A stretch of DNA of 64,000 nucleotides from NCBI RefSeq assembly GCF_963921235.1, contig NC_086097.1, positions 136,464,001 to 136,528,000 of the forward strand, given 5' to 3'. Source of the stretch: Mobula hypostoma. Lineage: Eukaryota. Below are positions 1 to 64,000 of this stretch, one piece after another (the stretch's first letter is position 1; every line of letters begins with the position of its first letter). The notes under the pieces are model-generated. The model was not told the origin of the DNA. It ran no database searches and worked only from the letters and a program-made list of their open reading frames with translations. The position numbers and the translations under genes are program-made.

Positions 1-3000
1 CCCCTCACCTCTCCTCCCCTCCTCACTGTCCTCCACCTCTCCTCCCCTCCTCACTGTCCCTTCAACTCTCCTCCCCTCCTCATTGTCCTCCACATCTCCT
101 CCCCTCCTCGCTGGCCCCTCACCTCTCCTCCCTCCTCTCTGTCCCCTCACCTCTCCTCCCCTCACTGTACCCTCACCTCTCCTCCCCTCCTCCCTGTCCT
201 CCACCTCTCCTCCCCTCCTCACTGTACCCCCACCTCTCCTCCCCTCCTCACTGTCCTCCACCTCTCCTCCCCTCCTCACTGTCCCCCACCTCTCCTCCCC
301 TCCTCACTGTCCCCTCACCTCTCCTCCCCTCCTCGCTGTCCCCTCACCTCTCCTCCCCTCGTCACTGTCCCCCACTTCTCCTCACTGTCCCTCCACCTCT
401 CCTCCTCACTGTCCCTCCACCTCTCCTCCCCTCCTCACTGTCCCCCACCTCTCCTCCCCTCCTCACTTTCCCCTCACCTCTCCTCCCCTCCTCGCTGTCC
501 CCTCACCTCTCCTCCCCTCCTCACTGTCCTCCACCTCTCCTCCCCTCCTCACTGTCCCTTCAACTCTCCTCCCCTCCTCATTGTCCTCCACATCTCCTCC
601 CCTCCTCGCTGTCCCCTCACCTCTCCTCCCTCCTCTCTATCCCCTCACCTCTCCTCCCCTCACTGTACCCTCACCTCTCCTCCCCTCCTCACTGTCCTCC
701 ACCTCTCCTCCCCTCCTCCACTGTACCCCCACCTCTCCTCCCCTCCTCACTGTCCTCCACCTCTCCTCCCCTCCTCACTGTCCCTCCACCTCACCTCTCC
801 TCCCCTCACTGTACCCTCACCTCTCCTCCCCTCCTCACTGTCCCTCACCTCTCCTCCCCTCCTCACTGTCCCTCCACCTCTCCTCCCCTCCTCACTGTCC
901 CTCACTTCTCCTCCCCTCCTCACTGTCCCTCCACCTCTCCTCCCCTCCTCACTGTCCCCTCACCTCTCCTCCCGTCCTCACTGTCCCCTCACCTCTCCTC
1001 CCCTCACTGTACCCTCACCTCTCCTCCCCTCCTCACTGTCCTCCACCTCTCCTCCCCTCCTCACTGTACCCCCACCTCTCCTCCCCTCCTCACTGTCCTC
1101 CACCTCTCCTCCCCTCCTCACTGTCCCTCCACCTCACCTCTCCTCCCCTCACTGTACCCTCACCTCTCCTTCCCTCTTCACTGTCCCCTCACCTCTCCTC
1201 CCCTCCTCACTGTCCCTCCACCTCTCCTCCCCTCCTCACTGTCCCTCACCTCTCCTCACCTCCTCACTGTCCTCCACCTCTCCTCCCCTCCTCACTGTCC
1301 CTTCACCTCTCCTCCCCTCCTCACCTCTCCTCCCCTCCTCACTGTCCCTCACTCCTCCCCTCCTCACTGTCCCTCCACCTCTCCTCCCCTCCTCACTGTC
1401 CCTCACCTCTCCTCCCCTCCTCACTGTCCCTCCACCTCTCCTCTCCTCCTCACTGTCCCCCACCTCTCCTCCCCTCCTCTGTCCCCTCAACTCTCCTCCC
1501 CTCCTCACTGTCCCTCCACCTCTCCTCCCCTCCTCACTGTCCCCTCACCTCTCCTCCTGACTGTACCCTCACCTCTCCACCCCTCCTCACTGTCCCCTCA
1601 CCTCTCCTCCCCGTCCCCCACCTCTCCACCCTCCTCACTGTCCCCTCACCTCTCCTCCCCTCCTCACTGTCCCCTCACTTCTCCTCCCTCCTCACTGTCC
1701 CCTCACCTCTCCTCCCCTCCTCACTGTCCCCCACCTCTCCTCCCCTCCTCACTGTCCCCTCACTTCTCCTCCCCTCCTCACTGTCCCTCCACCTCTCCTC
1801 CCCTCCTCACTGTCCCCACCTCTCCTCCCCTCCTCACTGTCCTCCACCTCTCCTCCTCACTGTCCCTCACCTCTCCTCTCCTCCTCACTATACCCTCACT
1901 TCTCCTCCCCTCCTCACTGTCCCCCACCTCTCCTCCCCTCCTCACTGTCCCCTAACCTCTCCTCCCCTCCTCACTGTCCCCTCACCTCTCCTCCCCTCCT
2001 CACTGTCCCCCACCTCTCCTCTCCTCCTCACTTCTCCGCCCCTCTCCTCTCCTCCTCACTGTCCCTCCACCTCTCCTCCCCTCCTCACTGTCCCTCCCCT
2101 CTCCTCCTCTCCTCACTGTCCCCTCACCTCTCCTCGTGACTGTACCCTCACCTCTCCACCCCTCCTCACTATACCCTCACTTCTCCTCCCCTCCTCACTG
2201 TCCCCTCACCTCTCCTCTCCTCCTCACTATACCCTCACTTCTCCTCCCCTCCTCACTGTCCCCCACCTCTCCTCCCCTCCTCACTGTCCCCTCACCTCTC
2301 CTCCCCTCCTCACTGTCCCTCCACCTCTCCTCCCCTCCTCACTGTCCCCCACCTCTCCTCCCCTCCTCACTGTCCTCCACCTCTCCTCCCCTCCTCACTG
2401 TCCCTTCACCTCTCCTCCCCTCCTCACCTCTCCTCCCCTCCTCACTGTCCCTCACTCCTCCCCTCCTCACTGTCCCTCCACCTCTCCTCCCCTCCTCACT
2501 GTCCCTCACCTCTCCTCCCCTCCTCACTGTCCCTCCACCTCTCCTCCCCTCCTCACTGTCCCCTCACTTCTCCTCCCCTCCTCACTGTCCCTCCACCTCT
2601 CCTCCCCTCCTCACTGTCCCCACCTCTCCTCCCCTCCTCCCTGTCCTCCACCTCTCCTCCTCACTGTCCCTCACCTCTCCTCTCCTCCTCACTATACCCT
2701 CACTTCTCCTCCCCTCCTCACTGTCCCCACCTCTCCTCCCCTCCTCACTGTCCCCTCACCTCTCCTCCCCTCCTCACTGTCCCCTCACCTCTCCTCCCCT
2801 CCTCACTGTCCCTCCCCTCTCCTCCCCTCCTCACTGTCCCCTCACCTCTCCTCGTGACTGTACCCTCACCTCTCCACCCCTCCTCACTATACCCTCACTT
2901 CTCCTCCCCTCCTCATTGTCCCCTCACCTCTCCTCTCCTCCTCACTATACCCTCACTTCTCCTCCCCTCCTCACTGTCCCCCACCTCTCCTCCCCTCCTC

Positions 3001-3320
3001 ACTGTCCCCTCACCTCTCCTCCCCTCCTCACTGTCCCTCCACCTCTCCTCCCCTCCTCACTGTCCCCACCTCTCCTCCCCTCCTCACTGTGCCCCCACCT
3101 CTCCTCCCCTCCTCACTGTCCCCCAACCTCTCCTTCCCTCTTCACTGTCCCCTCACCTCTCCTCCCCTCCTCACTGTCCCTCCACCTCTCCTCCCCTCCT
3201 CACTGTCCCCCACCTCTCCTCCCCTCCTCACTGTCCCCACCTGTCCTCCCCTGCACACTGTCCCCTCACCTCCCTTCCTCACTGTCCCCTCACCTCTCCT
3301 CCCCTCCTCACTGTCCCCCC
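1..3320. repeat. Pyrimidine-rich minisatellite, ~27-31 nt unit CACCTCTCCTCCCCTCCTCACTGTCCCCT, running off the window start
   Basis: Tandem variants of the unit are directly visible throughout. The long Pro/Ser/Leu ORFs are by-products of the repeat. Confidence 0.97.
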
Positions 3321-4278
3321 TTCCTTCCTTTATTTCTCTTCATAGCCATTCAACACATCTCCTTCCCTTACCTTCCTTCCTCTACCCACCTCCCTCCACA
3401 CTAGCTCCTCACTCACCGCCTTCCCTCCCTTACATACCCCTCCCAACTCCCTACCATGGGACATTATTTTGTTCTGCAGTAAAGTCTCAAGGTGTGGTAT
3501 AACGTTATGGAGAATGAATGCATCACTTACATTCTGTCTGTTGGCTAAACCTCTGTGCGACTGACGCCACAACAAGCAAGTTTTTCATTGTAATGGTCCC
3601 TCAGTGTGCTTGTGCACCTGACAGTAAATTTAACTGGATTGACCTTTCATATATATCCTCCCCTCCTGTCTACTATCCCCTCCTTTTGTCTCTTACTTCT
3701 GTTCACCTGCACTCCCACCTCCCCTTCCACCTATTCTCCATCCTGATCCCTTTCCAGCTTCCCTCTCCAGTCACTCAGTCCGCCCTCCTCCCCTCCCTGC
3801 ACCCTTCCCCCCCTCCCCCATCTGCAAGACCATTAGCAGCCGTTATCCGCGGGCAGTACCGGGCAAATTGCGCTGGTGGTGTTTTGAGTGGTTAGCCCCT
3901 TTAAGGACTGGATCCAGAGGTCACAGCTGCATGGACGAATGCCAGCTGTGCAGCGCAGCTATAGAATAATTTGTGTCAGATGTGCAGAGACAGAGAACAA
4001 TGCCATTTCATAACCCAGTGTTTCTTAATAGGAGCTATATTCAAACAGCATAACCTTAATGGCACTTTGCAATTCAACAGCCTTTGCACTTTAGACACGA
4101 GCAAGGTGAATTATAGACGGACAGTTGTCACAACACAACGTAGCTTAAGCAAGCTGACATAATGTGGCTGGAGGCCTGAGCCTGAGCCAGTGCATTATTA
4201 CAGTCAACTGCACAAATAGGTTATGTAGCTCTTTGATAATCCTGATTCCAGCCTGTCTGTTAAAGCATATTCAGGGTC

Positions 4279-4875
4279 CAAAGTTCAAAGTAATCTTATT
4301 TTCCAAGCACAAATATGCCACCGTATATGCAGTCCTGGGATTCATTTTCTTGCGGGCATTGACAGTGAATACAAGAAGCACAATCGACGCAGTGGGAGAT
4401 CGTACCCGACAGGGTGGACAAACAACCAGCGTGCAAACGGTAGTAAACTGTGCAAATACAAAGGGATAATAATAAATAAATAAACAAATCAATCGATCAG
4501 TAAGTAATAAATATCGAGAACATGAGATGAAGCGTTCCTGAGGTAAGTCCATAGGTTGTGAGAACAGATCAGTGATGCGGGGAGTGTAGTTGAGAGATGT
4601 TGTCCCCTCTGGTTCAATAGCCTGATGGTTGAGGGGTAATAACTGTTCCTGAACATGGTGGTGTGTGTCCTGAGGCTCCTGCGCCTGCTTCCCGATGGCA
4701 GCAGTGAGAAGAGAGCGTGGCCTGGACGGTGGGGGTTCCTGATGGTGGATGTTGCTTTCCTGTGACAGCGCTCCGTGTAGATGTGCTCAATGATAGGGAA
4801 GGCTTTACCTGTTGGACTGAGCTGTACCCAGTACTTTTTGTTGGCTCTTCTTTTCAAGACATTGGCGTTTCCCAT
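4279..4875 (-). mobile_element. Rex1/Babar-type LINE 3' fragment
   Basis: Minus-strand translation HRPGHALFSLLPSGSRRRSLRTHTTMFRNSYYPSTIRLLN followed by the family 3' tail (...ACTTTGAACTTTG). The same tail recurs elsewhere in the window. Confidence 0.85.
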
Positions 4876-5129
4876 GTGATGGCCTCCTATACGCGCCTCT
4901 CTCCTCCCTGTGTTTCCTGGGAGTGGGATGATCGAGGGAGAGTGTGCATGAGGCAGGGTAACCAGAGGAGATAAACAATACCTCCGCTCGACCAGGCTTC
5001 GGCCACTGGCATTTGCCTTCACTGCAGGTAGAGCTGCTCCCTGCCAGTTCCGGCCACACCAGTTCAACCCCGACCCCTGTGCTGCTTGTGTGGAGTTTGC
5101 ATGGCGCAGGGAGACGGTCTCGGATAAGA

Positions 5130-5355
5130 TTAGGGTGGCATGATAGAGTAGCAGTTGGCATAACTTTATTACGGCGCCAGCAACCCAGGTTTGGTCCCGC
5201 CACTGTCTGCAAGGTATTTGTACAATCTCCCTGTGACCTCGTGCATTTTGTATGGCTGTTCCGGTTTCCTCCCACATTCCGGAGACATACGGGTTAGAGG
5301 TTAATTGGTCACATGGGTGTAATTGTCTGGAGGGGCCTGTTACTGTGCTGCATCT
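5130..5355 (+). mobile_element. V-SINE (HE1-like) copy
   Basis: tRNA-like head plus V-domain-like TCCGGTTTCCTCCCACATTCC...GTTAATTGGTCACATGGGTGTAATTG. Confidence 0.7.
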
Positions 5356-5977
5356 CAAAACAAGTAAAATCAGTTAACAAAATTAGCAACATCAGACAGA
5401 AGCGAAGAGCGTGACAGAGGGCAGATTGTAGCGGTTGTTGTCCTGTGCAGCAATTTGGTCAATATCTTGGTAATAAAAGCAAATTCAGCAAACATATTGT
5501 GGAACGTTGTCCTGTGCAAAGATTACCAGATCACCAAGCCCCTGTCCAGCTCCAGTTGCCAAGATGTTAAGCTGTAGCCCTACAGCTGTTGGCTGACTGC
5601 GAGCAATATCTGCCTCCCATGACTCATGTTTTGCCACTCTTCTGTGATCCAATAGACTTAGACTGCCAAACTTGCTCCAGCTGTGAACATCAAGCCACAT
5701 GTGTTCATGTGATGGATTTAACTTAACTCCCTCAGCACTGCGGTAAAACATTCATAATCCTTGCTGGACTGTGTCCATTAACCAGGCAGTAAAACGTGCT
5801 CTGATGGCAGCACAGTTTTCACACTCTCTGGACAGACAGATACGGGACTTGGGTAAGTGTAGGCCATCCCCACCCATCGGGGAACAGGTCAGAACGGGGC
5901 AGCTCTGTGGCACAGCTGGTAGAGCTGCAGCCACCCCACCCCGTGCCAGAGACCTGGTGTCAGTCTTGACCTTGGAT

Positions 5978-6162
<185 letters not shown>

Positions 6163-6665
6163 AGCTCTCTGGCCACTTGGGTTTTCTCCAAGCGATATTC
6201 ATAGAACTACACAGCACCGTCACAGCTCCACAACCCGAATTGCCCACACTGACCATGATGACTATCTACACTAATCTCATTAGCCTGCGCTTGGCCCATA
6301 TCCCTTCCTACCATGTACTTGTCCGAATTTCTTTTAAAAGTAATAATTACAGACATCTTCCCCACTTCCCCCGACATCTGTGTAAAAAATTCAGCTTCCC
6401 TTTATAGATTTCACCTTAAGTGCAACTCACTAGTCTTACACTTCCTTACCCTGGAGAAAAAAAATATACTGTGACTATCTAACCCCTCTCTGCCCCTTAT
6501 AATTTGGTAAATCTCTATAAGGGCACCCTTTAGCCCCCTTTGCTCTAGTTTCTTCTCTTATCCTAAAGATGCATGAATTGATTGGTGATTTGGCCACTGT
6601 AAATTGCCCCCTGTATGTAGGTGAGAGGTGGAATCTGGGCGAGTTGGTGGGAACATGGGAAGAAT

Positions 6666-14830: not shown

Positions 14831-15738
14831 GAACAAGGCCTACATACAGGAGCCAGTATGATACGACATGGCCCGACCTCATCAGCCCCACACACACTTT
14901 ATCAGCTGTGCCATTGGGCCACTCCTTCAGCTGGTTACAGACTCGTGAACAACTTTGTTGTGTTCTACCATCCCACATCTGAGTTCCTCCATTTATAATA
15001 GTCGATTTTAATTGTTGTTAAATTGTGCACCTCAGAATGGACCCCATCACTTTGCTGCCAATTTACAGCTGCTTTCGTTTGTACATTTTTCAGCCACATT
15101 CTTCAATGGGCACTGAAGACTTGCATTCAGTACCGTGGACAAGGGGACTGAGCGTACGGCAGCCAGATTTGCTGATGAGACAGTGATAGGTTGGTTTGTC
15201 GATTGTGAGGAGGACACAAGGGATCTGAAGAGGGATGTAAAGAAGTTAATTGAGTGGGCAAGAAGTGAGAGTGTAATGTGTATATTGTGATGTTGTCCAG
15301 TGAAAAATGGCAAAATAAATAAATACTTAAACAGAGTGAGATGACACAATCATGTGTTACAAAGGGATTCTACAGTGTGAATGTATGGAGGGGGTAAGGA
15401 GTTATCGTGCCGGTTGAGTTAGGAGGACTAGTGGAATATTGGGCTTTATTTCAAGGGTATAAAGGTGGGAACCTTTGATGCAACTCTTCAGGGTGCTGGT
15501 GAGGGGTCCCTAGAGTACCAGGTACATTACTTGAAGCAGAATGTGCTGGATTTGGAAGCAGTGCAGCAAAGGCTCACTGGATCAATTCTTGTGATGAAGA
15601 GGATTTTGTGCGAAGAGAAGCTGAGAAAGTTAGGCCTCAAATCATTGAAGACTAAAAGAATGAGGGGTGATCTTATTGAAACGTAAGATTCTGAGGGCAG
15701 TTGATAGGTTGGACACTTTTCCCCCATGTTGTTTCAGA

Positions 15739-16303
15739 TTGGGGTGTATGAAGTGTCAGGGAGGGGTAGCACTTCTGGTGGGGGAACATGTCGTGTCCTT
15801 TTTCAGGGCGGTTAGTCCACCTTTGCTCCCCACCTGGCACTCAGCTCTCACCTGTGGCTCCTCGTAGCTGTTTGCATGCGACAGCGGCCACACCCCAGGC
15901 AATGGCTTCGACAAGCCGGCTAAACCAGGTGAGGGTATCCGACGGGTCTCAAACCCTCGGTGAGATAGGGAGTTGCCTATCCCAGCATGTGAAGACAGAC
16001 TCTGACGGATTGAGTGGACAAGACCAATGGAAAGTCCAATGGTCAAGAAGGCAGTCTCTGCAAGCGTCGTGGAACATGTAGAGCAGGACAAGACACACAA
16101 GACGTCCTGGTCATCCACTGCACCTAGTCCCATCTCCAGCCGTCTAGACTCTGTCTTGTCACCGGATCCAGATGGGAATTGGGAAAGGAGAGTGAGGCTG
16201 ACACTGCGCAACTCTCCCTCACTTAAATCCAAATCACGCGCTAGTCTCAACACCATCATTATGGTGTCGAGGTCCTCATCGACGTCGACGACGGACGAAC
16301 ACA
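15739..16303 (+). mobile_element. Non-autonomous RTE-derived element (5' UTR joined to 3' end), 565 bp
   Basis: Perfect 14-bp TSD CATGTTGTTTCAGA (15725-15738 and 16304-16317). CpG-rich. The 3' end GAGAGTGAGGCTGAC...CTCACTTAAATCCAA...GGACGAACACA resembles RTE-related SINE tails. Confidence 0.8.
15741..15933 (+). ncRNA. HDV-like self-cleaving ribozyme fold
   Basis: P1 GGGGTGT(15741-47)/ACACCCC(15890-96); P2 CTCACCTG(15847-54)/CAGGTGAG(15926-33); P3 GGC/GCC; L3 starts TCCTCG; P4 GGCTT/AAGCC; J4/2 GGCTAA with candidate catalytic C15920. Confidence 0.75.
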
Positions 16304-17994
16304 CATGTTGTTTCAGAGTAAGGGGTTGGCCATTTCAGATGGAGGTGAGGAAGAATTTCTTTTCTCAGAGATTTGTGACTCTTTGGAGTTCATTACTGCT
16401 GAGAGTTGTGGGATGGTGTCAGTCAGTATGTTCAAGGGAGAGACTGACAGACAAAAGAACAGCGGAACAGAAAGAGAGCAGGACAGTTGTGCTGAGACCA
16501 AGATGAGAACAGACATGACCTTATTGAATGGTAAAGCATCTTCAAGGGACTATGTGAAGAACAAGTTGCTGGAGGGTCTCACAGGATAGGCAGCATCTGT
16601 GGAGGGAAATGTAAAGTTTCGGGCCAAGACCTTTCACCCAACAGAGAAAACGTTGAGCCTCAGATCTCTTTTAACCCATGTCTTATAGTTTTAGATTCCA
16701 CTGGGAAAAACCAGTGACTATCCACCCTATCTATGCTCCTCATGACCTTATCTACCTCCCCTCACTCTCCTACTGTCCAGGGGAAAATAAACCTCAGCCT
16801 ATCCGGTCTCCGCCTATACTCAATTTCAATATGCTCCTAAGTTTTCCATTCTGAATAGACTTTGCTGAGCTTAAAATACTGCCCTCTTTATTCCTTGACA
16901 AGTCCTACCAACTTCAATCAGGAAACTAAGTATTTATTGAGAGTTGGGACCTCTCTCATTCTTAAGTAGGTCCTAGCTCCAAGTACCCTAAATTAATTTA
17001 TAAAATGAACAAAAGAGTTTGTGGAAAACACTTCCTTGGAGAAAGCATTGCTGAATTATATGTGTGTGTGCGGTTCTGGACTGAAGTGAATGAATACAGA
17101 GTTACTGAGGGATATACCAAAGAACAAACATCTTGCAGAGTTGCATAATACTGGGGAGTATTAATCAGTAGCTGCTTAGAAATCAGCCTCTAGGTGGGCT
17201 CCAGTTTTGGGAACCAGCACTTATAGTAAACATTATGTACTTTTGTTGCTTTAGTTTCTCCGATTTTGGAACTAATAGTGTCTCTTTAGGCCAACATCTG
17301 CCTTGAATTACCCCTGCTGATATTTTATTCTTACTGTGCTAACTCTACAATGTTGGCTCTATGACATGTTACCATACCAGGGAACTGAATTAAACTACCT
17401 TCTTTATATACCTCTGTCATTTTCCCTGCAGCTACCAAGTGAGGAAATTGAATCAGCATCTTTATTGTCTTATCATTCTCTCTCTCTGTAATTTTCTCTA
17501 CCACCCCCCACCCCTCCTTATCTCTCTAACCTCCTCTGGCCACCCAAATCCCTCCTTATCTCTGCAAACCCCCTCAGCCCTATACCTCCCTCATCTCTAT
17601 AACCTCCTCTAATACAGTAACCCTCTTTACAACGCTGCAAGAATCCAATTATAACACCCACTGCTTCCCAGATTCCCTCTTTAGGATGGTCCCCACACCC
17701 ATCCGATTGGCCTAGCCTTTGGTCTCCCTCCCCAATACATGACTGGGTGACAGATTTTGTTGGGTGAAGCTCCTGCAAAGCAAGTTCGATTTACTGGTTG
17801 GAAAGTGCTTTATAAATGCAATGGCTGATGTTATTGATGGTCCCGGCTATGTCATGGTAGAATTGCTCCTGAACTGTGGCGGCTTGATAAAGTACTGCTT
17901 CAACGCATCTCCAACTGAGGAGTTGTAACCTGGTTGTCTCTGAGAAAAGATCTCTGTGCCGATGGGAGCTATTTCATTTGGGAACAGTTTAAAA

Positions 17995-24605: not shown

Positions 24606-27459
24606 TTAGTCCCACTGCCCTGCCTTCTCACCATAACCTTTGATGCCCTGGCTACTCAGATACCTATCAATCTCTGCCTTAAATACACCCAATGACTTGA
24701 CCTCCACTGCTGCCCGTGGCAATAAATTTCATAGATCCACCACCCTCTGACTAAAAAAATTTCTTCGTATTTCTGTTCTGAAAGGGCGCCCTTCAATCCT
24801 GAAGTCATGCCCTCTCGTACTAGACTCCCCCATCATGGGAAACAACTTTGCCACATCCACTCTGTCCATGCCTTTTAACATTCAAAATGTTTCTGTGAGG
24901 TCTCCCCTCATTCTTCTAAACTCCAAGGAATACAGTCCAAGAGCGGACAAACGTTCCTCATATGTTAACCCTCTCATTCTCAGAATCATTCCAGTGAATC
25001 TTCTCTGTATCCTCTCCAACGTCAGCACATCCTTTCTTAAATAAGGAGACCAAAACTGCCCACAGTACTCCAAGTGAGGTCTCACCAGCGCCTTATAGAG
25101 CCTCAACATCACATCCCTGCTCCTATACTCTATTCCTCTAGAAATGAATGCCAACATTGCATTCGCCTTCTTCACTACCGACTCAACCTGGAGGTTAACT
25201 TTAAGGGAATCCTGTACCAGGACTCCCAAGTCCCGTTGCATCTCAGAACTTTGAATTCTTTCCCCATTTAAATAATAGTCTGCCCGTTTATTTTTTCTGC
25301 CAAAGCGCATAACCATACACTTTCCAACATTGTACTTCATTTGCCACTTCTCTGCCCATTCTTCCAATCTATGCAAGTCTCTCTGCAGACTCTCCGTTTC
25401 CTCAGCACTACCGGCCCCTCCACCTATCTTCGTATCGTCAGCAAATTTAGCCACAAAGCCATCTATTCCATAATCCAAATCGTTGATGTACAATGTAAAA
25501 AGAAGCGGCCCCAACACTGATCCCTGTGGAGCACCACTGGTAACTGGCAGCCAACCAGAATAGGATCCCTTTATTCCCACTCTCTGTTTCCTGCCAATCA
25601 GCCAACGCTCTATCCATGTATGTAACTTTCCTGTAATTCCATGGGCTCTTATCTTGTTAAGCAGCCTCATGTGTGGCACCTTGTCAAAGGCCTTCTGAAA
25701 ATCCAAATATACAACATCCACTACATCTTCCTTGTCTAGCCTACTGGTAATTTCCTCAAAAAGTGTAACAGGTTTGTCAGGCAGGATTTTCCTTTAAGGA
25801 ATCCATGCTGAGTTCTGCCTGTCTTGTCCTATGCCTCCAGGTACTCTGTAACCTCATCCTTGACAATCGACTCCAACAACTTCCCAACCACCGATGACAA
25901 GCTAACAGGTCTATAATTTCCTTTTTGCTTCCTTGCCCCTTTCTTAAGTAGCGGAGTGACATTTGCAATCTTCCAGTCCTCCGGAACCGTGCCAGAATCT
26001 ATCGACTTTTGAAAGATCATCGCTAATGCCTCCGCAATCTCCACAGCTACTTCCTTCAGAACACGAGGGTGCATTCCATCTGGTCCAGGAGATTTATCTA
26101 CCTTTAGCCTATTCAGCTTCCTGAGTACTTTCTCTGTCATAATTGTGACTGCACACACTTCTCTTCCCTGCCACCCTTGAGTGTCCGGTATACTGCTGAT
26201 GTCTTCCTCAGTGAAGACTGATACAAAATACTTGTTCAGTTCCTCTGCCATCTCCTCATCTCCCATTACAATTTCTCCAGTATCATTTTCTATCAGTCCT
26301 ATATCTACTCTCACCTGTCTTTTACTCTTTATATACTTGAAAAAGCTTTCTTGGTTTCCTTTTGTAAGGTTTTAAAGACTTCCCAATCCTCTGTCTTCCC
26401 ACTAATTTTTGCTTCCTTGTATGCCCTCTCTTTAGCTTTAACTTTGGCTTTGACTTCTCTTGTCAACCACGGTTGCATCCTTTTTCCACTCAAAAATTTC
26501 TTCTTTTTTGGAATATACCTGTCTTACACATTCCTCATTTCTCGCATAAACTCCAGGCACTGCTGCTCTGCCGTCTTTCTCGCCAGTGTCTCTTTCCAGT
26601 CAACTTTGGCCAGTTCCTCTCTCATGCCACTGTAGTTTCCTTTACTCCACTGAAACACCGACACATCAGATTTTGGCTTCTCTTTTTCTAATTTCACAGT
26701 GAACTCAATCATGTTATGATCACTGCCTCCTAAGGGTTCCTTCACCTCAATCTCTCCAGTCACATCCGGTTCATTACACAATACCCAATCCAGTACAGCC
26801 TATCCCCTAGTGGGCTCAACAACAAGCTGTTCTAAAAAGTCATCTCGCAGACATTCTACAAATTCTCTCTCTTGAGATCCAGTGCCGACATGATTTTTCC
26901 AATCTACTCGCATGTTAAAATCCCCCACAATTATCATAACACTGCCCTTCTGACAAGCCTTTTCTATTTCCAGTTGTAATTTGTAGTCCACATCCCTGCA
27001 GCTGTTTGGAGGCCTATAAATAACTGCCAGCAGGGTCCTTTTACCCCTGCTATTCCTTAGCTCAACCCATAAAGATTCTGCACCTTCCGATCCTATATCA
27101 CCTCTTTCTAATGATTTAATATCATTTCTTACCAATAAAGCCACACCTCCCCCCCCCCTGCCTACCTTCCTATCCTTCCAATACACCGTGTATCCTTGGA
27201 CGTTCAGCTCCCAGAGACATGCATCCTTTAGCCAGGTCTCAGTGATGGCCACAATATCATACCTGCCAATCTGTAGCTGTACAACAAGATTATCCACCTT
27301 ATTCCTTATGCTGCATGCATTTAAGTACAACACCTTAAGACCAGTATTTGATACTTTTTGCTTTGATTTCACTGCAACTTTTTTGCACTGCAACTCATCC
27401 CAATGGCTACACATTTGCCCCATCACCTGCCTGTCTTTCCTGACATCTTTACTGCTCAC
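24606..27459 (-). pseudogene. CR1 ORF2 (APE endonuclease plus reverse transcriptase), broken by stops, frameshifts and an internal deletion near 26350
   Basis: YLNACSIRNK, AITETWL, VGDFNM, SPGPDGMHPRVL, DFQKAFDKV, PQGSVLGP, KFADDTK. Confidence 0.92.
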
Positions 27460-27527
27460 TATCTTAGATTTATTTCTGTTTTCCCCTTCCTCTGCTCTAT
27501 CATTCCGGTTCCCATCCCCCTGCCAAA

Positions 27528-28490
27528 TTAGTTTAAACCCTCCCTAACAGCTCTATTAAACTTTCCCGCCAGGATATTGGTCCCCTTCGGGTTCAGGTGT
27601 AACCTGTCCTTTTTGAACAGGTCATACTTCCCCCAGAAGAGATCCCAATTATCCAAGAATCTGAAGCCCTGTCCCCTACACCAGTCTCTCAGCCAGGCGT
27701 TCATCTGCCTGATCCGACTACTCTTGCCCTCGCTAGCACGTGGCACAGGTAGCAATCCCGAGATTACTACCCTGGAGGTTCTGCTTCTCAGCTTCCTTCC
27801 TAACTCCTGGAAATCTCTCTTCAGGACCTCCTCCTTTGTCCTATCTATGTCATTGGTACCAACATGTACCAAGACAACTGGCTGCTCACCCTCCCCCTTT
27901 AGAATATTCAGGACCCGATCCGAGACATCCCGTACCCTGGCACCTGGGAGGCAACACACCATGCGGGTATCTCTGTCAGGCTCACAGAATCTCCTGTCCG
28001 TTCCCCTGACTATGGAATCCCCCACGACTACCGCATTTCTCTTCACCCTCCTTCTCTCCTGCACAACAGCGCCAGGCTCAGTGCCAGAGACCCGGTCACC
28101 GTGGGCATCCCCCGTCAGGTCACCCCCCTCAACAGCATCCAGAACAAGATATTTGTTGCTGAGGGGGACAGCCACAGGGGTCCTCTCCACTATCCGGGCA
28201 TTTCCCTTCCCTCTCTTGACAGTGACCCAGTGTTCTGACTCCTGTAGCCTAGGGATGGCTACTGACTCCTGTAGCCTAGGGATGACTATCTCCCTGTAGC
28301 TCCTACCTAGCACCTCTTCACTTTCCCTGATAAGCAGTTGGTCATCAAGCTGCAGCTGCAGATCCCTAACACGGTCCCTGAGGAGCTGCAACTCGGTGCA
28401 CCTGGCGCAGATGTGGCCATCAGGGAGGCTGGAAGTCTCCCAGGATTCCCACATCTGACACCCTGAACAAAGCACTAACCCTGCAGGCAT
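27528..28490 (-). CDS. CR1 ORF1p: zinc finger, coiled coil and SGNH/GDSL esterase domain; open for 320 aa
   Basis: CSGC..HICARC, VVGDSIVRG, LPGARV, HVGTND, DRLH blocks. Confidence 0.9.
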   Translation of the reverse strand: MPAGLVLCSGCQMWESWETSSLPDGHICARCTELQLLRDRVRDLQLQLDDQLLIRESEEVLGRSYREIVIPRLQESVAIPRLQESEHWVTVKRGKGNARIVERTPVAVPLSNKYLVLDAVEGGDLTGDAHGDRVSGTEPGAVVQERRRVKRNAVVVGDSIVRGTDRRFCEPDRDTRMVCCLPGARVRDVSDRVLNILKGEGEQPVVLVHVGTNDIDRTKEEVLKRDFQELGRKLRSRTSRVVISGLLPVPRASEGKSSRIRQMNAWLRDWCRGQGFRFLDNWDLFWGKYDLFKKDRLHLNPKGTNILAGKFNRAVREGLN

Positions 28491-29439
28491 GCTATCTAAT
28501 TCTACACGAATGAAACAGGAAAAATGTGTCTACTCACCCACTTACCTTGCCAAACAGACAAACTTTTTAAACTGTTAGCTGTGAGAGCCTTGCTGATTCG
28601 TCCGGGCCGACGAATATATTAATCATGGGTCTAAAATAACAAAAATTGATATAATTTGCCAATTATAAACTTGTCATGCTCACTGGCATAATAAAGTTAC
28701 CTCATTGATACACAGAAATTCTATTAATTTAAAGTTTAATGCTCAAAATAATGTCACATCTAAACCCAAAAGCTGAAGATACTGAAAGAACTGTAAGTTA
28801 TAACCTAGGTTATAGCTCCCTCCAGTGTTACTTTCAGTGACCTGCTAGAAAAAGACAATAGAAAAAGGAATAGTTTGTTGACTTATATTTGACAATGTTT
28901 AATGAACTTCGTGAAAAATTTATAGTCCAAATTGTGCTTTATGAAATTGCCAGAGAGAAATGTGCCCTCCCACCTCAAGTACAACTAACTGGAAACGAGG
29001 GATAGACATAGGCTTGAAGAAGGTTAAGAAGCTGTGGTGGAAAGATTACAAAGTCTAGGAAGGAAGGTAAATGAGAACAGCAGTAGCCCCTGCACCGTAG
29101 TGCCTTGCTTTGAATTAGATTGAGGCAAATTTCTGCCGTAACTCAATCTCCCATCCACAATGGGTGATATCAGATTCTTGAGCAGACCTCTCAGACACTA
29201 ACGACAAATTATTGATCCAACCTACATCAAACTAGCAATCTACCTCATGGTTGTCCTTGCTCTTTACTCACTGCACTTTCTCAGTAACTGTAATACTGGC
29301 TTTTGTTTTCTTTTCCTTTTTACTCCTTAAGTGTAATTATGTATGGCATGACCTCTCTGGATGGCAGACAAACAAGTTTTTTTTTACACTGTATCTCATT
29401 ACAACAATAAACCATTTCTATTTCCAATTCCATCATGGT

Positions 29440-33933: not shown

Positions 33934-36900
33934 TCTCCCTGTAAACTTTGATCCCCTTACTAATCAAGAACCCATCAACCTCTGCTTTAATTATACTTAA
34001 TGACTTGACCTCCACAGCCATCTGTAGCAATGAATTCCACAGATTCACCATCCTCTGGCTAAAGAAATTTCCCCCACTTCACTGTTCTAAAGGGATGTCC
34101 TGTTATACTGAAGCCACGCGCTCTGGTCCTAGACTTTCCCATTATTGGAAACATCCTCTGCACATCAACTTTACCTAGGCCTTTCAAGATTCCATGAGAT
34201 TTCCCCTCCCCTGCCATTCTTTTAAATTCTAGCCCAGAACCATCAAGTGCTCCTCATATATTAACCTTTTCATTCCCAGGATCATTCTTATAGACCTTCT
34301 CTGGATCCTTTACAAGGCCAGCACACCCTTCCCTAGATATGGGGCCAAAACCTCTTAAGGTACTCCAAATGTGATCTAACTAATGCCTTAAAAAGTTTTA
34401 GTATTATATCCTTGCTTTTAGATTCTCGCCCTCTCAAAATGAATGCTATCACTCCTTACTACCAACTCAACATGCAAGTTAAACTTTAGGGGTTCTGCAC
34501 AAGGACTGCCAAATACATTTACAACTCCAATTTATGAATTCTATTTATCCCTATTTATAAAATTGTTTATGACTTTATGCCTTCTACCAAAGTGTGTGAC
34601 TATATACTTCCTTACGTTGTATTCCACCTGACGCTTCTTTGCCAATTCTCCTAATCTGTCCAAGTCCTTCTGCAGACTCCCTGCTTCCTCAGAACTATCT
34701 GCCCCTCCACCTATCATTGCATCATCCACAAAGCCATCAATTCTGCCATCCAGATCATTAACATATAACACGAAAAGTAAAGGACCGAACACCGACCCTT
34801 GCCGAACACCACTAGTCACCAGCAACCAACTAAGAAGGTTCCCTTGATTCCCACTCTTTGCCATCTGCCAGTCAGCCAATCTTCTCTCCATGTTATTATC
34901 TTCTCTGTAATACCACAGTTTTTCAGCTTGTTTAACAGTCACATGTGCAACATTTTATCAAAGGCCTTCTGAAAGTCCAAGAAAACAACATCTATTGACT
35001 CTCCATTGTCTACCCTGCCTATTAATTCCTCAAAGAATTCCAACTGATTTATTAGACAGGACTTCCCTTTTAGGGTACCATGCTGAATTTGGCCTATTCG
35101 ATCATGTGCCTCCAGGTACCTGGAAACCTCATCCTTAATAAAATCTTGCCAACCACTGAAGTCAGGCTAACTAGCCTATAATTTTTGACATGTTGTGTAT
35201 TTAACATTTCAGTAATATTTGAGTAACATTGTAAATATGTTATTTTATTAAATATTCTTTGTGTTTATATAATCCATTATGGGTTATATATAAAAATACT
35301 TGAGTGGTATATGTCATTATGCCACCACATCATAAATGCATGCCTCACTTAAAGTAAAGATTAAATTAGGCAGACACATCTCTCGGGCTTCCTTGTTTTT
35401 CTTTCTATTAGTTTTATGCTTTAGAGTTACAAAGCATTACAGTGGCAATGAGTAAGATTGAAGATGAATCCAAGATGACTAGCTACCTGTTGAACATGTT
35501 CTTTTTTTCTTTACCAAGGGAAAAGAGACATTCAAGTTTTTTTAAAAAGCACAGCACATGGTTTCTTCAGGAAAGGAAAGATGACTGAGTTTAAAAAAGG
35601 GCAGGAAAGGGATGAATTCATGGGTTCATAAACAGTGAATACCAGATGATAATAATCATAAATTTAAAAAAAATAAATGGCTGGCTATATCGGAAAGATA
35701 GACAGGTTCAATTGGACAAAAGTCAACAGGATACTGTATATTGAGTGAATTGAACAGTGTTTTGAAGAAAATGAAATAGCCAATAAGAATTGAGTGACAG
35801 TTTTGCCAAGTGCATTGGCTGGAAAAGCATATAGTTTGCTTAGACATTTAACTGCTCCAACCAAACCAGCTGAAATGAGATTTGCTGTATCATGAACATA
35901 ATGCGAGACCATTTAGAACCAAAACCATTGATGATTGCAGAACGTTTTACATTTCATAAGTGGAATCAAAAGGAAGGGGAGCCCATTTCAACTTACGTGG
36001 CTGAATTGAAGACATTTTCTGAGCATTGTGAGTTCAGTGACAACAATGCACTGAGAAATTATTTGGTTTATGGAATCTTACAAGAAAGTATTCAAAATCA
36101 GCTCCTAACTGAAGTACAACTCACATTTAAAAGAGCAGTTGAAACTGTTGTACCAATGGAAACAGGCAGACAGACATGCAAGTAAGCTGCAGTCAGGAAC
36201 AAATGTGAGCATGAGCAAAATTGCAGCGTCTAGATGGAGGCTTGCCCTGCTGAACAAACTGTTACCATGTGGCAGGGGCTCACATACACCAGACCAATGC
36301 AGGTGTGTGATGCCACAGGAGTGTTCAAGGACAGCATTGGAAAATGCAAACATATCAAGGGCAAAATAGCATTAAATGAAAATGCGACACCCAAGTTTTA
36401 TGAAGGCTGTCCAGATCGTTATACCAACTGTGATAAAGTAGTCAGTGAGCTAGATCATATGGAGGCTGAAGGAATTTTTTTCAAGGTTGAGTGGAGCTTA
36501 TGGGCAACAGCAGTGTTCTCAGTAGTAAAAAAAGATGGATCTGCCAGGATCTGTGGTGATTTTAAGGTTACCACCAACTCCGTACTGAAAGTAGATCAAA
36601 ACCCTCTGCCCAGGATAGGGGATATCTTTGCAAACCTCTCTGGAGGGAATCACTTCAGCAAAGTGAACATACTGAGGTCTATCTACAGATGGAGATGGAA
36701 GAAGAGTCCAAAATGTTTCTCACCTTAAACACACACACACAAAGGGCTTTATCGCTATAATAGGCTTATTTTTGGAGTAGCATCTGCACCTGCACTCTAG
36801 CAGAAAGCTATGGACCAGGTGTTGCAAGGCTGCCCAGGCATCCAGTGTTACCTGGATGACATCATGGTTTCCAGTGAGGATGACAAGGAGCATCTCAAAA

Positions 36901-38345
36901 TTGCAAGACAGTGTTAAAAAGATTAGAAGGTTATGGGCTCAGAGTGTGATGCAAAGAGTGTGAATTCTTTAAACCAAGTATCACTTACTGTGGTCACACC
37001 ATTGACACACAAAGTTTACACAAGTGTGCTGAGAAAATTCAAGCAGTGGTGGATGCCACAAGACCAAAGGATGTGTTACAATTGTGGTCCTCTTTACGAT
37101 TTGTCAATTACTGTAACAGGCTCCTGCTTAACTTGGTTACTGTACTCCACCCCTTCAACTCATTTCTACAGATTGGGAAGAAATGGAAATGGACAAAGCA
37201 GTGTTTGGTGGCTTTCCAAAAGGCAGAGGAAATGGTGACGTTAGACATTGTACTCACACATTATGGTCCACATCGTCCAGTGAAGCTTATCTGTGACGCC
37301 TTGCCTTATGGTATAGATGCAGTTATGTCACGTGTTATGAGTGATGGAAGTGCATCACATTGCTTTATCGCTGCAGAGAAAGATTACACACGGATTGATA
37401 GAGAGGCCTTGAGTCTCTGGTTTGGGGTGTAAAACATCTCAACCAGTACTTGTTTGGGAGAAAGTTTACCCTCATTACTGACCATCAATCACTAGTGTCC
37501 ATTTTCAACGCACAGAAGGTTGTTCCACTAAAAGCAGCAGCACAAATGCAGAGACGGGCCCTCTTTACTGGAGGGGCACAACTACAAGATTGAATTCAAG
37601 AGGACGCCAAATCATGGAAGTGCTCATGGATTGTTCCACTTACCATTGGAAAAAGAAATACCTGAAAAGTATTCAAAAGAGTACAGTCCTCTTGATGGAT
37701 TCCTCCAATGCAAATCAAAAGTCTTCTTATTATGGCAGAGATAATCCAAAGGGAAACCAGAAAAGACCCCACACTGTCTCAAGTCTACATGGCAACCCAA
37801 AGTGGCTGGAATGTGCAGCAGAAACTCCAACCCCCCATTTCTACCAATCCCAGAATGAACTTTCCCTTGATGGGGGTTGCCTTGTGTGGGTATGAGTGTT
37901 CTTGTACCATCCAATCTGAGAGCTAAAGTGTTAAGTAGCTACATGCCAGTCACCTAGGTGTGGTCAAAATGAAAGCATTGGCTCAGAGCTTTGTCTGGTG
38001 GCCTGGGATAAATCAACAAATCGAGCAGCTTGCCATGTACTTTTTGAGATGTCAACACATGCACAAGAAAAATGTCCAGAGCTGGCAGAAACACTTTCTG
38101 CAATCCCAGAGTCAATTCATACAACCACCATGGAGGAGACCTCAAAACCTGTGATTGTTTCACAACCACAAGTCTCACCTGCCAAGCAGAGTGACTTTCT
38201 TCGTCAGGGAAGGCGTAGTCCCACAAGAGTAAGAAATCCTCCACAGATGTTAAATCTTTAGACTGATTGGGACAAATTAAAATTTTCAGTGCTGTGGATG
38301 TCTATATAGTAGTTGTATTATATAGTATACTGAATATATGTATGC

Positions 38346-49300: not shown

Positions 49301-51957
49301 TGATCATGGCTGATCATCCAACTCAGAACCCCGCCCCAGCCTTCCCTCCATACCCCTGACCCCTGTAGCCACAAGGGCCATATCTAACTCCTTCTTAAAC
49401 ATAGCCAATGAACTGGCCTCAACAGTTTCCTGTGGCAGAGAATTCCACAGATTCACCACTCTCTGTGTGAAGAAGTTTTTCCTAATCTCGGTCCTAAAAG
49501 GCTTCCCCTCTATCCTCAAACTGTGACCTCTCGTTCTGGACTTCCCCAACATCGGGAACAATCTTCCTGCATCTAGCCTGTCCAATCCCTTTAGGATCTT
49601 ATACGTTTCAATCAGATCCCCCCTCAATCTTCTAAATTCCAACGAGTACAAGCCCAGTTCATCCAGTCTTTCTTCATATGAAAGTCCTGCCATCCCAGGA
49701 ATCAATCTGGTGAACCTTCTTTGTACTCCCTCTATGGCAAAGATGTCTTTCCTCAGATTAGGGGACCAAAACTGCACACAATACTCCAGGTGTGGTCTCA
49801 CCAAGGCCTTGTACAACTGCAGTAGTACCTCCCTGCTCCTGTACTCGAATCCTCTCGCTATAAATGCCAGCATACCATTCGTCTTTTTCACCGCCTGCTG
49901 TACTTGCATGCCCACTTTCAATGACTGGTGTATAATGACACCCAGGTCTCGTTGCACCTCCCCTTTTCGTAATCGGCCACCATTCAGATAATAATCTGTT
50001 TTCCTATTTTTGCCACCAAAGTGGATAACTTCACATTTATCCACATTAAATTGCATCTGCCATGAGTTTGCCCACTCACCCAACCTATCCAAGTCACCCT
50101 GCATCCTCTTAGCATCCTCCTCACTGCTAACACTGCCACCCAGCTTCGTGTCATCCGCAAACTTGGAGATGCTGCATTTAATTCCCTCATCCAAGTCATT
50201 AATATATATTGTAAACAACTGGGGTCCCAGCACTGAGCCTTGCGGTACCCCACTAGTCACCGCCTGCCATTCTGAAAAGGTCCCGTTTATTCCCACTCTT
50301 TGCTTCCTGTCTGCTAACCAATTCTCCACCCACACCAATACCTTACCCCCAATACCGTGTGCTTTAAGTTTGCACACTAATCTCCTATGTACATCTTTTA
50401 TGTACATCTTCAGCAGTTTCAACAGTGACTACTTCCCTACTCTCACTAGTAAGGGTTTCACTGAACTGGGTTAACATCTCTCTCAAGATTTCATTATAAT
50501 CTTTCCCACTGCACTTTGCTAAGGTTTTCAACCCACCAAGGTAAGCTTGAGTGGTGTCTTTTCCAACTTTCTGAGTGTAAACACTGGCTAAAGTAACTAC
50601 ATGGAAGGAAACATTTTGGTTACCACTTGCCTGTTGAGTGTATGGGCTGGAGATCTTGCATGGCAGAAACAAAATAGTACTCTACTATGAGGGACCTGGG
50701 AAATTCTCACCAGGATCAGTTAAACAAATAACTCTGGCAACTGAACCACGTTCTTTTAGAAAGTCCAGTATCTCCTCATCTTGTTCTGTTCCTGTTATGC
50801 CATTGACTGAAACAGCATTTGGGATTTTGACACCCTTTTCCTCTATGACTTCCATTTTCATTCACTGTAAGCCTCAATTGAACAAGTAAGTTTGAACAAT
50901 AAGATTCTTTCAGTGCTTTGTATACTGATCGGTATGCTACTGGTTATCTAATACACTGCCTCCTGGCTGGCTTGCCACGTTTTATCTAACACCTGTGTAG
51001 CACCAGTCTTATTGTGTGTGACTAGTCATCGCACTCTTTAAAGAAAATCAAATTACACTTGGTGCTAATAGGCTTTCAGAAGATTCTAGTATCGGAAGGA
51101 GGCAGTGAATAGAAACCACACTCTTCTGGAGATAAGTTTTGCTTATAGGGAAAAAAGAACAATATGTACAAAATATTTACATGAGCAAGAACAATTCAAA
51201 TTTCCAACATTTTGTTTAGGTTCCAAATCTTAGATATCAAACCAAAACAAATTCCTTTTTAATTAGAATCAGTGAGATTACTTTATTACTCTAATCTCTC
51301 CGACTAATTAGATCCGGTTTACAGACTATACTTTCCTTTTTACTTATCCCAAGTTATTTAGAAAGCTAATTGAATTCCTGTTCTCAAGTATTATAGTTAA
51401 CTTCAGTTTCAGTTCCAGGCAGTATATCCGCAAGTTTAAATTCAAATTAAAAATGTTATATATATATATATATACACACACACAGTTTAACTCCATTTAT
51501 GACAATTCTCCAACATCACAACTTTTAAACAAAATAAATCTCATTCAGCAACTTATCAAAGTCTTTGCAAAAATAGTCAGTTCTTGCAGAAAATGTAATT
51601 TGGATTATTCGAATGAAAATAAACTTATACATCCAACCATATTAAATCCTCTGTGTCATTACACATTTCAGTAAATCTTTTATTGCTATTGTCTCTCTTC
51701 CAGGGGTTTCACCCTGACATTTTCAAGTTAGTAGGGTAAAGATACTCACTACTAATTCTGCTCCTAACAGTTCATGATTTCAGCTTCTAATCATTGTTGC
51801 GTTCTCTCCTTGCCCGTCCTGTGTCAGCCACGTCTCTTCTCACATAGCAATTTTTCAAATTCTCTTTTTTTTAAAGAATTGATAAACCTTGTTTTCATCC
51901 CTCCACAGGTAGAACTTTCTAACATTACATCTTTGGGTTTAATTAACCTGGGTTACA
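46335..51957 (-). mobile_element. Gypsy LTR element with PNMA-like gag and pol almost wholly deleted (LTRs 46335-47482 and 50985-51957)
   Basis: TGTAAC..GTTACA LTR ends; TSD CACT/TACT; PBS matching tRNA-Arg(ACG) at 50960-50977; gag MEVIEEKGVKIPNAV, QRVIVEHVV, LRTFSGRTP, CCHC knuckle CFKCAKDGHITSSC. Confidence 0.92.
49225..50388 (-). mobile_element. Young 5'-truncated CR1 with an uninterrupted RT C-terminal frame (49304-50388)
   Basis: PQGSVLGP and KFADDTK with no stops; (TTTCTATG)n tail. Confidence 0.95.
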
Positions 51958-61742: not shown

Positions 61743-64000
61743 TGTTGAGTTCTGTTCATTTGGACTATGTAAGTACTTAGTAGGCGTGCACACTTCCGCT
61801 GTTACGCGCATGGGCACCCGAGAAGGAGGGAGGAATGTGGAATAAAAAGGTGGCAGCCTTCAGGGATTGAACGGAGGCGTTGAAAGTAAAGTTCTTTAAA
61901 CAGAATAAAAACATGTCCTTGTTGTTTGGCGTTAACAGTGGTAGCAGAGAATGGTTTCCAATTATAGGATCTCGCCAGCATTTGCTGAGAGCAAGCCTTA
62001 CAAAAGCTGGAAAAATGAAATTGAAATATGGTCTCATATTGCAGAACTGGAGAAGACGAAGCATACCTTGGCTGTTGTCAGGAAGAGCGAGAGAGACTGT
62101 GATGGGAATTTCGGTGGAAGACTTGAACAAAGGTGACGCTATGAATAGGCTAATAAATCCACGTGACTTTTTTTTGAAGGAAGAAAAGGATCGGATTTAT
62201 GAGGCATATTCAGACTTTGACAAAATTTACAGAGAAAATTCTAAAGATATGGCTGATTATGTTATTGATTTTGAACTAAAGTACAGTCGCATGCAGAAAT
62301 ACAAAGTGGAACTTCCTGACACTGCATTAGCTTTTAAATTGTTGGTACTGCATGTCTAGACATAAAGGACAGATAGCTTGCGTTAACTGCATGCACAGAA
62401 CTTACACTTGCATCTATGAAATCAGCACTGAACAGGATTTTTGGAGAAAAGTCCATTAAGACAACAGTCCAGTTTGAGTCAGGAAATGGCATACTTCACT
62501 GAGCAAAACAAGATTATAGCGAGCGTAGATCCAACAGTGACCAGACAAGGGAACCATTACCTGCCACAAGTCCAATAAGCAAGTGTGGTGGGAGATCGAA
62601 ATGTGCGGTATCTCAAAGTACTTACCACGAGGCAAGAAACTGTCTGCACAGAACTGAACAAGTTAGGCTAACTGAAGAAATTAACAAATCTGAAGATGTA
62701 GAAGAGTGCCATATCACATTGTTTGCAAAGGAATCACTCGCTAATAAGCAGATATCTGAGGGAGAGATTTTGATGATAGAATCTCTAGGATCTGCTGTTA
62801 CTGGTGCACACACACAGAGCGGAGAAAAATGGCTTGAAAGCTATGTAAGTGAACAAAACCAGAATAAAATGCAGAAACTGGTGAACACAGATACACCTAG
62901 TAACAAAGCATTCACATTTGGAGATGGAAAGATTATACATTCTACCAAAAGAGTGAAAATTCCTGCAAAACTAGGGCAGACAAAATGTTACATTGAATTG
63001 GAGATGGTACTAGTGAACATTCCATTACTCTTTAGTAAAACTTCCCTCAAGAAACCTGAAGCAGTGCTGGATATGGAGAATGACCAGGCAACAATGAATC
63101 TACAGCCAGTGCCTCTTGAGCTCACCAGCTCCAGACATTACTGTGTGAACATTCTAGATAAAGATTTACTGAGAACCATTGTGAGAATGCAGTACTAACT
63201 GTCACACAAAACAAGACCACAGATGTGAAGTGTAAAGTATTGTTCAAACTTCACAAGCAGTTTGGAGACACTTCAATTGAAAGACTTTGGAGACTGCTCA
63301 GGTATTCAGGAAACAAAGACACAGATTGTTTTTCCACTGCAAAGCAGATAATTGACAGCTGTGAGATGTGCCAGAAGTTTAGAAAGCCCAAGCCCGTGCC
63401 TGTGCTTGGTCTGCCACCAGCATCTGAATACAATGAAACAGTAGCCATAGACCTACATGAACTGGAGCAAGGAGTGTGGTATCTGCACATCATTGATGAG
63501 TTCACATAAATACCTCAGAGATAGTAAAAAATCTTCATCTGTTCCTGGATAAGTGTGTATGGCCCACCTCAGAAAGTATTCAGTGATAATAGTCCTGAAT
63601 TTAGTAAAGATGAGTGCAGAGATATGGCAGAGAACTTGCACATTGAAACAAAGACAACAGCGGCATATAGTCCTTGGAGTAATGGACTTCTGGAGTGAGA
63701 CAATTGAACATTAACTGAAATAATACTGCAGGTATAGAAAAGCAATGGTTGTGATTGGAACACATCCCTGGACTGGGCCCTTATTGTGAAGAATACCAAG
63801 CACAATGTACATGGCTATAGCCCGTATAAATTGGTATTCGGCCAGAATCCAAACCTTCCCTCTGTACTGGTTGACAGCTTACCTGCTCTAGAGGGCACTA
63901 CAAGGAGTGAGTGGGTTGGGAAACATAGTTCAGATTGCATGCATCAAGGAAGGCTTTCTCTGAGGTAGAGTGTTCAGAGAGAATTCACAGAGCACAGAGG
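61743..64000 (+). mobile_element. Ty1/Copia (GalEa-like) LTR retrotransposon, degenerate, continuing past the window end; 5' LTR 61743-61937
   Basis: LTR TGTTGA..TTAACA; PBS TGGTAGCAGAGAATGGTTTC (tRNA-iMet); gag PYKSWKNEIEIW; protease region FTFGDG; integrase LHKQFG..CEMC, AIDLHE, FSDN, YSPWSNGLLE directly after the protease (Copia order). Confidence 0.88.

Follow-up and report, generated by a model that had tools for sequence, protein, structure and literature searches.

An HDV-fold variant with a hairpin in L3 at the head of a short RTE-derived element of Mobula hypostoma

HDV-like ribozymes occur on R2, L1Tc, baggins and RTE elements (PMC6765202, PMC7761336). The ribozymes described from retrotransposons (PMC6765202, PMC5786205; R2, PMC3774820) share a nested double pseudoknot with a catalytic C in J4/2 and cut at the first base of the element, with variable junction bases upstream; their P1 of 6-7 bp tolerates mismatches at the top, and position 7 is frequently mismatched in R2 ribozymes (PMC3774820). 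A G at position 1 opposite a pyrimidine and a P1 of 6-7 bp are typical of HDV-like ribozymes (PMC6326823). In drz-Agam-2-1 of Anopheles, a large structured J1/2 closed by P1.2 is combined with short linkers and an extended P2, and the P1.2 closure, linkers and long P2 speed cleavage by up to three orders of magnitude (PMC4908430). Self-cleaving RNAs at RTE 5' ends are not restricted to the HDV class, since the RNA that sets the 5' end of Perere-3 in Schistosoma is a twister variant, of an unrelated class (PMC8501958). Short elements such as WALLSI3, RTESINE2, MAR4_MD and Bov-A, which join an RTE 5' UTR to an RTE 3' end and have neither an ORF nor a tRNA head, are known as bipartite non-autonomous LINEs; their 5' end was proposed to be kept perhaps for ribozymes, with no structure shown in that account (PMC5786205).

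Here we describe a short element from contig NC_086097.1 of Mobula hypostoma that shares features with each of these systems. Like the bipartite elements it consists of an RTE 5' UTR and 3' end, and like drz-Agam-2-1 it begins with a large J1/2 closed by P1.2, short linkers and an extended P2. It departs from the described retrotransposon ribozymes in an L3 of 26-29 nt that holds a hairpin, in two additional bases in J4/2, in a doubled P1 strand and in its setting, a vertebrate non-autonomous element present in thousands of copies. An L3 insertion is not known from drz-Agam-2-1, the activity of which was measured (PMC4908430), whereas that of the present RNA is predicted from its sequence.

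The element and its predicted fold

The insert occupies positions 15739-16303 of the window (the whole stretch of 64,000 nucleotides that was analyzed) and is 565 bp long, flanked by exact 14-bp repeats (Table 1). A 5' UTR and an RTE 3' end are joined in it with the ORF absent, and target-site duplications, a microsatellite tail and many dispersed copies complete the features of a bipartite non-autonomous RTE element; a tRNA head was not found in the 565 bp. The first-pass annotation had proposed an RTE derivation, which is borne out by the similarity of the 5' UTR and 3' end to three autonomous RTE families, denoted X, Y and Z, and, by eye, by the likeness of the 3' half to printed segments of RTE-1_PSi, RTE-3_AMi and WALLSI1 (PMC5786205 supplement). 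One 24-mer of the element has exact matches at sites that place the family at no fewer than 2,751 copies in the 3.48 Gb of genome searched, as against none for the reversed control. The family is contained in four contig sequencing runs, and viral contigs yielded no match to the element. Three DNA searches, from which 90 loci of 120 listed were fetched, provided 62 distinct full-length copies, which diverge by 2.5% from their own majority sequence.

The host of the insert is an older LINE fragment that was broken by the insertion, given that both flanks match successive parts of a frame bearing a reverse transcriptase (RT) domain at window 49304-50428 (-), the 3' part of another LINE. Elsewhere in the window, a long C+T-rich tandem repeat with extreme skew fills positions 1-3500, a near full-length LINE copy lies in several frames at 24882-28529 (-), and broken frames are found at 36234-37895 (+) and 61871-63198 (+). 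We take the LINE copies at 24882-28529 and 49304-50428, including the RT-bearing frame of the latter, to be of the CR1 type; the broken frames presumably derive from LTR-retrotransposon proteins, which they resemble in their motifs.

Table 1. Features of the insert and of its ribozyme-like head (window coordinates)
Feature	Positions	Strand	Remarks
TSD, 5' copy, 14 bp	15725..15738	+	identical to 16304-16317
Junction bases TT, not element-encoded, U at -1	15739..15740	+	variable among copies
P1 5' strand; predicted cut 5' of G15741; element 5' end	15741..15747	+	partner 15890-96
Second P1-like unit, GGGGUGU in family, two G>A here	15750..15756	+	normally P1.2 5' strand
J1/2 domain, closed by P1.2 (15751-60 / 15833-42)	15751..15842	+	closure predicted in 12/12 aligned sequences
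P2 5' strand, 10 bp	15845..15854	+	partner 15926-35
P3 5' strand	15856..15858	+	partner 15887-89; paired in 62/62 copies
HDV-like part of L3	15859..15866	+	U20/C21/C22/G25 equivalents 15859/15860/15861/15864, invariant in 62/62
Extra L3 hairpin, 3' side of L3, 5-6 bp stem	15867..15885	+	five pairs intact in 58/62 copies
P3' 15887-89, P1' 15890-96, P1.1' 15897-98	15887..15898	+	A15897 breaks one pair here
P4 hairpin, 6 bp with 15903/15918	15903..15918	+	core pairing 15904-08/15913-17
J4/2, putative catalytic C15920	15919..15925	+	C in 62/62 copies, 12/12 aligned sequences
P2 3' strand	15926..15935	+	partner 15845..15854
Remaining RTE 5' UTR	15936..16256	+	similarity to families Y, Z; RTE-1_PSi, RTE-3_AMi by eye
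11-bp hairpin, loop = 5'UTR/3'UTR deletion junction	16246..16271	+	remnant of candidate long-range helix
RTE 3' end, about 40 nt	16261..16303	+	family tail of (CAA)n type
TSD, 3' copy, 14 bp	16304..16317	+	identical to 15725-15738

All HDV-type helices are present in HDV order at window 15741-15935, with C15920 as the putative catalytic base, and in the 62-copy alignment each helix named in the first-pass annotation was found at its place. P2, initially delimited as 15847-54/15926-33, extends at its outer end to 10 bp, and P4 to 6 bp. P1 has 7 bp and opens with the pair G15741-C15896; at least 6 bp including this first pair are formed in 47 of the 62 copies, and family X has a C at P1 position 7, consistent with a 6-bp P1. 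A single unpaired U separates P2 from P3, although the register of this junction may differ: U15855 may pair with A15924, which leaves a bulged C and a P1 of 7 bp, or with A15890, which makes P3 4 bp and P1 6 bp long. P1.1 is formed by 15860-61 and 15897-98, with both pairs in 50/62 copies and only one in the window copy, and together P1, P2, P3, P1.1 and P4 make up the nested double pseudoknot, with covariation in P2 and P4 only.

The joining segments hold both the typical and the divergent features. The catalytic C is followed by U-A-A, in agreement with the C-N-R-A pattern, and J4/2, which reads G-C-U-A-A-A-C, is two bases longer than the antigenomic HDV form to which it had been equated. 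J1/2, first described as about 100 nt long and able to pair internally, measures about 97 nt and has a predicted closing P1.2. L3 (15859-86, 28 nt) consists of eight HDV-like bases, a 19-nt hairpin and one G. Its HDV-like part has the U20 and G25 equivalents, both invariant, and the C21/C22 equivalents that pair with GG; the C24 equivalent is C in the window copy and in 8/12 aligned rows and A in the other 4/12. The motif UCCUCG reported for the start of L3 is present in the window copy, but its U15862 is a minority state, C being found in 55/62 copies. The extra stem GCUGU/ACAGC was correctly recognized as the hairpin that follows.

The family starts with a tandem of two GGGGUGU units, a feature that was missed at first; the second unit is mutated in the window copy, where positions 15751 and 15752, G in 60/62 and 57/62 copies, are both A. 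The remaining changes of the window copy are G>C at 15826 and C>T at 15862 and 15903. A15897 had been attributed to CpG decay, and accordingly G stands there in 50/62 copies and the neighboring C15896 is T in 6/62. All core features are kept in 33/62 copies. Given the several weakening changes in the window copy, the ribozyme claim suits the family better than the window locus, and the family master would probably cut faster than this copy. Separately, A at P1 position 6 (window 15746), which creates an A.C mismatch, occurs in 17/62 copies and goes together with T at 16260 (p 0.002), implying that a source copy with a mismatched P1 still transposed. Overall, we consider the 565-bp insert likely to be a bipartite non-autonomous RTE element in a decayed state, with a variant HDV-type ribozyme as its first 195 bases.

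The Rfam models of the HDV type gave no match in the window or in 15600-16400, either at the gathering score or up to E 10. The published RNArobo descriptor sets L3 at 7 nt, J1/2 at no more than 51 nt and P2' immediately after CNRA (PMC4870747 supplement), and the site, with its L3 of 28 nt, J1/2 of about 97 nt and two additional bases in J4/2, does not fit it; these fixed limits make the descriptor blind to this RNA. A looser descriptor of the HDV topology, written after the site had been seen and allowing 7-45 nt in L3, had a single match on both strands of the window, the one with the cut at G15741 and C15920, compared with one match in 60 dinucleotide shuffles of 60 kb and none in 3,000 shuffles of the element. 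The nested folding energy is only moderately unusual (z -2.06), and the minimum-energy nested fold extends P3 into P1' and leaves P1 unformed, pseudoknots being outside the model. The modest z score, the silence of Rfam and the retrospective composition of the descriptor could be read as signs that the helices arose by chance in a G+C-rich repeat; this reading is largely refuted, and very improbable, in the face of the 3,000 element shuffles that all failed the descriptor, the compensated changes in P4 and P2, and the clustering of 5' ends at G1 (both below). The site is a variant of the HDV fold rather than a canonical member, and a real, conserved one.

Conservation across lineages and parentage

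Because the copies of the family differ so little from their majority sequence, covariation within it is uninformative, and the lower rate of change in the ribozyme core among them is an effect of copy selection. A single pattern scan of metagenome contigs returned 35 loci, of which 22 were dropped as chance matches and 13 are true relatives, in five lineages; both tandem 5' units are seen in 7 of these 13. An endonuclease frame lies downstream in L149 (where Pfam confirmed it), in L154 and in the L139/L141/L160 group, and related full-length elements have APE and RT domains. L136 is another bipartite element; at L136:1835-2980 it continues in frame into a host frame downstream of it, which, from its motifs, we take to resemble a ubiquitin-specific protease. 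P4 and the P1 strand have been lost in L129/L159, and L160 has a deletion within J4/2.

With the L149 protein as query, 141 places in the genome of M. hypostoma were scored and 30 were fetched; 17 of these autonomous RTE loci are similar to the ribozyme region, and another 3 to the downstream leader only. The ribozyme, together with the L3 hairpin, is present in families X and Z, which were thus found without any RNA pattern. Family Y, whose near-intact frames encode 984-1,129 aa, has a different G+C-rich 5' end in place of the ribozyme head; it is young, its copies (L193-L196) being about 96% alike. An L3-variant word has 965 exact matches, and the 25 loci fetched (L213-L237) include family Z and an older family, more decayed, with the same fold and another version of P4, which was also observed as loose ends in four runs.

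For covariation, 12 sequences were chosen by hand to represent seven lineages, leaving out L129/L159, L141, L160 and near-duplicates. Across them, 93% of 460 cells pair, as against 38-47% for slid control structures, and seven pairs change on both sides, in 17 cells, a number reached by none of 500 shuffles in a control that ignores relatedness. Four of the seven pairs belong to P4 (of its 6), two to P2 and one to P1.1, the last in one decayed, misaligned row. P4 occurs in several compensated versions across the lineages, and in the hand-anchored P2 of the L152/L139/L156 group a U-A pair is replaced by A-U and a G-C pair is added. P1, P3 and P1.1 are invariant, and in the metagenome rows P3, P1.1 and P1' were fixed by the search pattern. 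All 12 sequences have the L3 stem, with loops that differ in length and sequence, but its outer five pairs change on one side only; a sixth pair, U-G, U-A, A-U or C-G, is formed in 6 rows and open in the remaining 6, and a C.A mismatch occurs in two rows from one family-Z subgroup. The covariation, a test that the first-pass annotation had proposed, supports P2 and P4 well and the L3 hairpin only weakly. To judge from these sequences, the variant with the L3 hairpin is not confined to this element or to this genome.

The short element matches family Z at 77% over 15739-16143 and family Y at 76% over 16034-16246, and combines an X/Z-like head with a Y-like leader and tail; no element with both ends was found. 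In a search for the direct autonomous parent, 93 pattern matches were obtained and 30 fetched, in none of which the 3' arm was attached to an RTE ORF: 28 were copies of the short element with loop indels or truncations, and two started at the loop. An RTE family with DUF6451 (L099/L111, 1,018-aa frame) was rejected as the parent, none of 37 loci resembling the element; in L111 the frame lies on the reverse strand, 3189-6242.

The head may also be the one with which marsupial WALLSI3 and RTESINE2 begin. Four short motifs of this ribozyme were not found in the supplement of the study that discusses such bipartite elements (PMC5786205).

5' ends of the copies and the proposed mechanism

The predicted cut site had been equated with the element's 5' end, and the copies agree with this assignment. 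Among 30 copies taken in genome order and selected by a word from the 3' part, 15 begin within 2 nt of G15741, where uniform truncation would place about 0.3 copies of 30 in such a 5-base window, and none begins at G15750. Of the others, 5 align from 15747-15754 and 10 are truncated further in. As delimited by target-site duplications of at least 9 bp, the end lies within 2 nt of G15741 in 22/30 copies. The base at -1 is T in 41/62 copies (background 0.37, p 3e-6) and G in 8/62; the lack of a G excess is expected for an uncapped 5' end. In genomic HDV, U is the best base at -1 (PMC1874588).

The cut had been placed 2 nt inside the target-site duplication; the bases 15739-40 do lie between the two, but they vary from copy to copy and do not belong to the element. 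They are probably non-templated additions, comparable to the variable untemplated junction bases of R2 elements, which are likewise cut at their exact 5' end (PMC3774820). Realignment of the cDNA end was rejected as a source of the extra 5' bases, the evidence being weak (T 10/15, A 6/11, T 3/7) and non-templated addition simpler. Upstream flanks are not propagated, with one shared pair among 64 distinct flanks. That pair involves L262 and L266. The latter (454-1590 in element orientation; compare L262:961-1590) is a head-to-tail dimer, probably flanked by a single target duplication and composed of a 5' copy cut at the junction hairpin, 69 bases of the L262 upstream flank and a full copy. Variants common to the two loci are swapped between the halves, which fits a circle from the L262 locus recombined into another copy; 5' transduction was dropped as the source of the shared flank, because the recombined circle explains it better.

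The HDV-fold variant very probably sets the 5' end of a branch of RTE elements. An element copy would be transcribed by read-through from host DNA; P1.2 would fold first and tie up the second GGGGUGU, whereupon P1' would pair with the first unit and C15920 would cut 5' of G15741. The uncapped RNA would be reverse-transcribed in trans by an RTE protein, often with one to few untemplated bases added, and reverse transcription of the cut RNA with such additions would account for the cut site as the starting point of new copies and for the usual U at -1.

Sharp 5' ends would likewise result from an internal polymerase II start in a structured 5' UTR, in which case the HDV-like core would be a non-cutting relic, perhaps switched off by the insertion into L3, a part of the catalytic core that measures 28 nt here and 7 in the published descriptor. 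Moreover, family Y transposes with its different, ribozyme-less 5' end, so that RTE elements here can do without a ribozyme. We regard such a relic as unlikely, since seven lineages with widely diverged J1/2 have retained the two pseudoknot strands as well as U20, G25 and the catalytic C, the 5' end falls on G1 of P1, and an excess of G at -1 of the cap type is absent.

The tandem GGGGUGU units allow a further alternative, in which the ribozyme is active at two sites, P1' also pairing with the second unit (G15750), and the tandem has a switch function or is restored when the cDNA end realigns. The absence of starts at G15750 in the ordered sample and the predicted engagement of the second unit in P1.2 in 12/12 sequences make this quite improbable, even though P1' is complementary to both units, L033 carries three and a half of them, and cleavage at two sites after duplication has been proposed for R2 (PMC3774820). 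The whole first unit is present in only one of the seven family X copies shown, and L139/L142 start at the second unit, but long elements often lack a few 5' bases.

With the ribozyme cutting at G15741 as the preferred reading, the L3 hairpin would most likely be oriented away from the active site, as a domain that assists folding or stability. The bases of HDV that lie 3' of G25 face outward. The hairpin is located 3' of the G25 equivalent, so that the U20-G25 pair and P1.1 could persist beside it.

A candidate 5'UTR-3'UTR helix and implications

The junction of 5' UTR and 3' UTR in the short element sits in the loop of the 11-bp hairpin at 16246-71, a loop with many small indels among copies L268-L297, a sample picked for loop changes. 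In families X, Y and Z the homologous arms, 3.2-3.5 kb apart (more with insertions), are complementary, with family-specific sequences (loci compared: L193-L196, L197/L204/L206/L207, L198/L199/L201 and L136). At fixed landmarks the family-matched arm pair scores best in 5/5 families, with only a narrow energy lead over Z in the case of X, and for 5 of 11 autonomous copies its pairing is equaled by no other window of the element. In a duplex-energy scan of whole elements, the predicted 5' partner ranked first in only 3 of the 11, and shuffled arms scored equally well. The printed arms of RTE-1_PSi and RTE-3_AMi are also complementary by eye (PMC5786205 supplement). On this complementarity we lean toward a real long-range helix between the two UTRs, and a reverse transcriptase skipping across it would yield bipartite short elements.

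The combined reading, in which an animal RTE branch is headed by an active HDV-like subclass with an L3 helix, an extended J4/2 and a duplicated P1 strand, and in which the RTE RNAs are looped by a 5'UTR-3'UTR helix, is put forward tentatively. No report of an L3 hairpin or of a 5'-3' helix was found in the literature, and Ruminski 2011, Webb 2009 and Webb and Luptak 2011 may bear on the novelty of both. Part of the HDV active site comes from L3, which the published descriptor treats as a fixed 7-nt loop (PMC4870747); a natural helix kept there across lineages would indicate that the core tolerates a peripheral domain at this position and that HDV-like ribozymes are undercounted in genomes, this one alone having thousands of copies. 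If the combined reading is true, the subclass has escaped descriptor searches and is undescribed so far. The candidate 5'-3' helix would offer a direct test of the question why few LINE clades make internally deleted derivatives (PMC5786205): if true, skipping explains why RTE elements, almost alone among LINEs, give rise to bipartite short elements.
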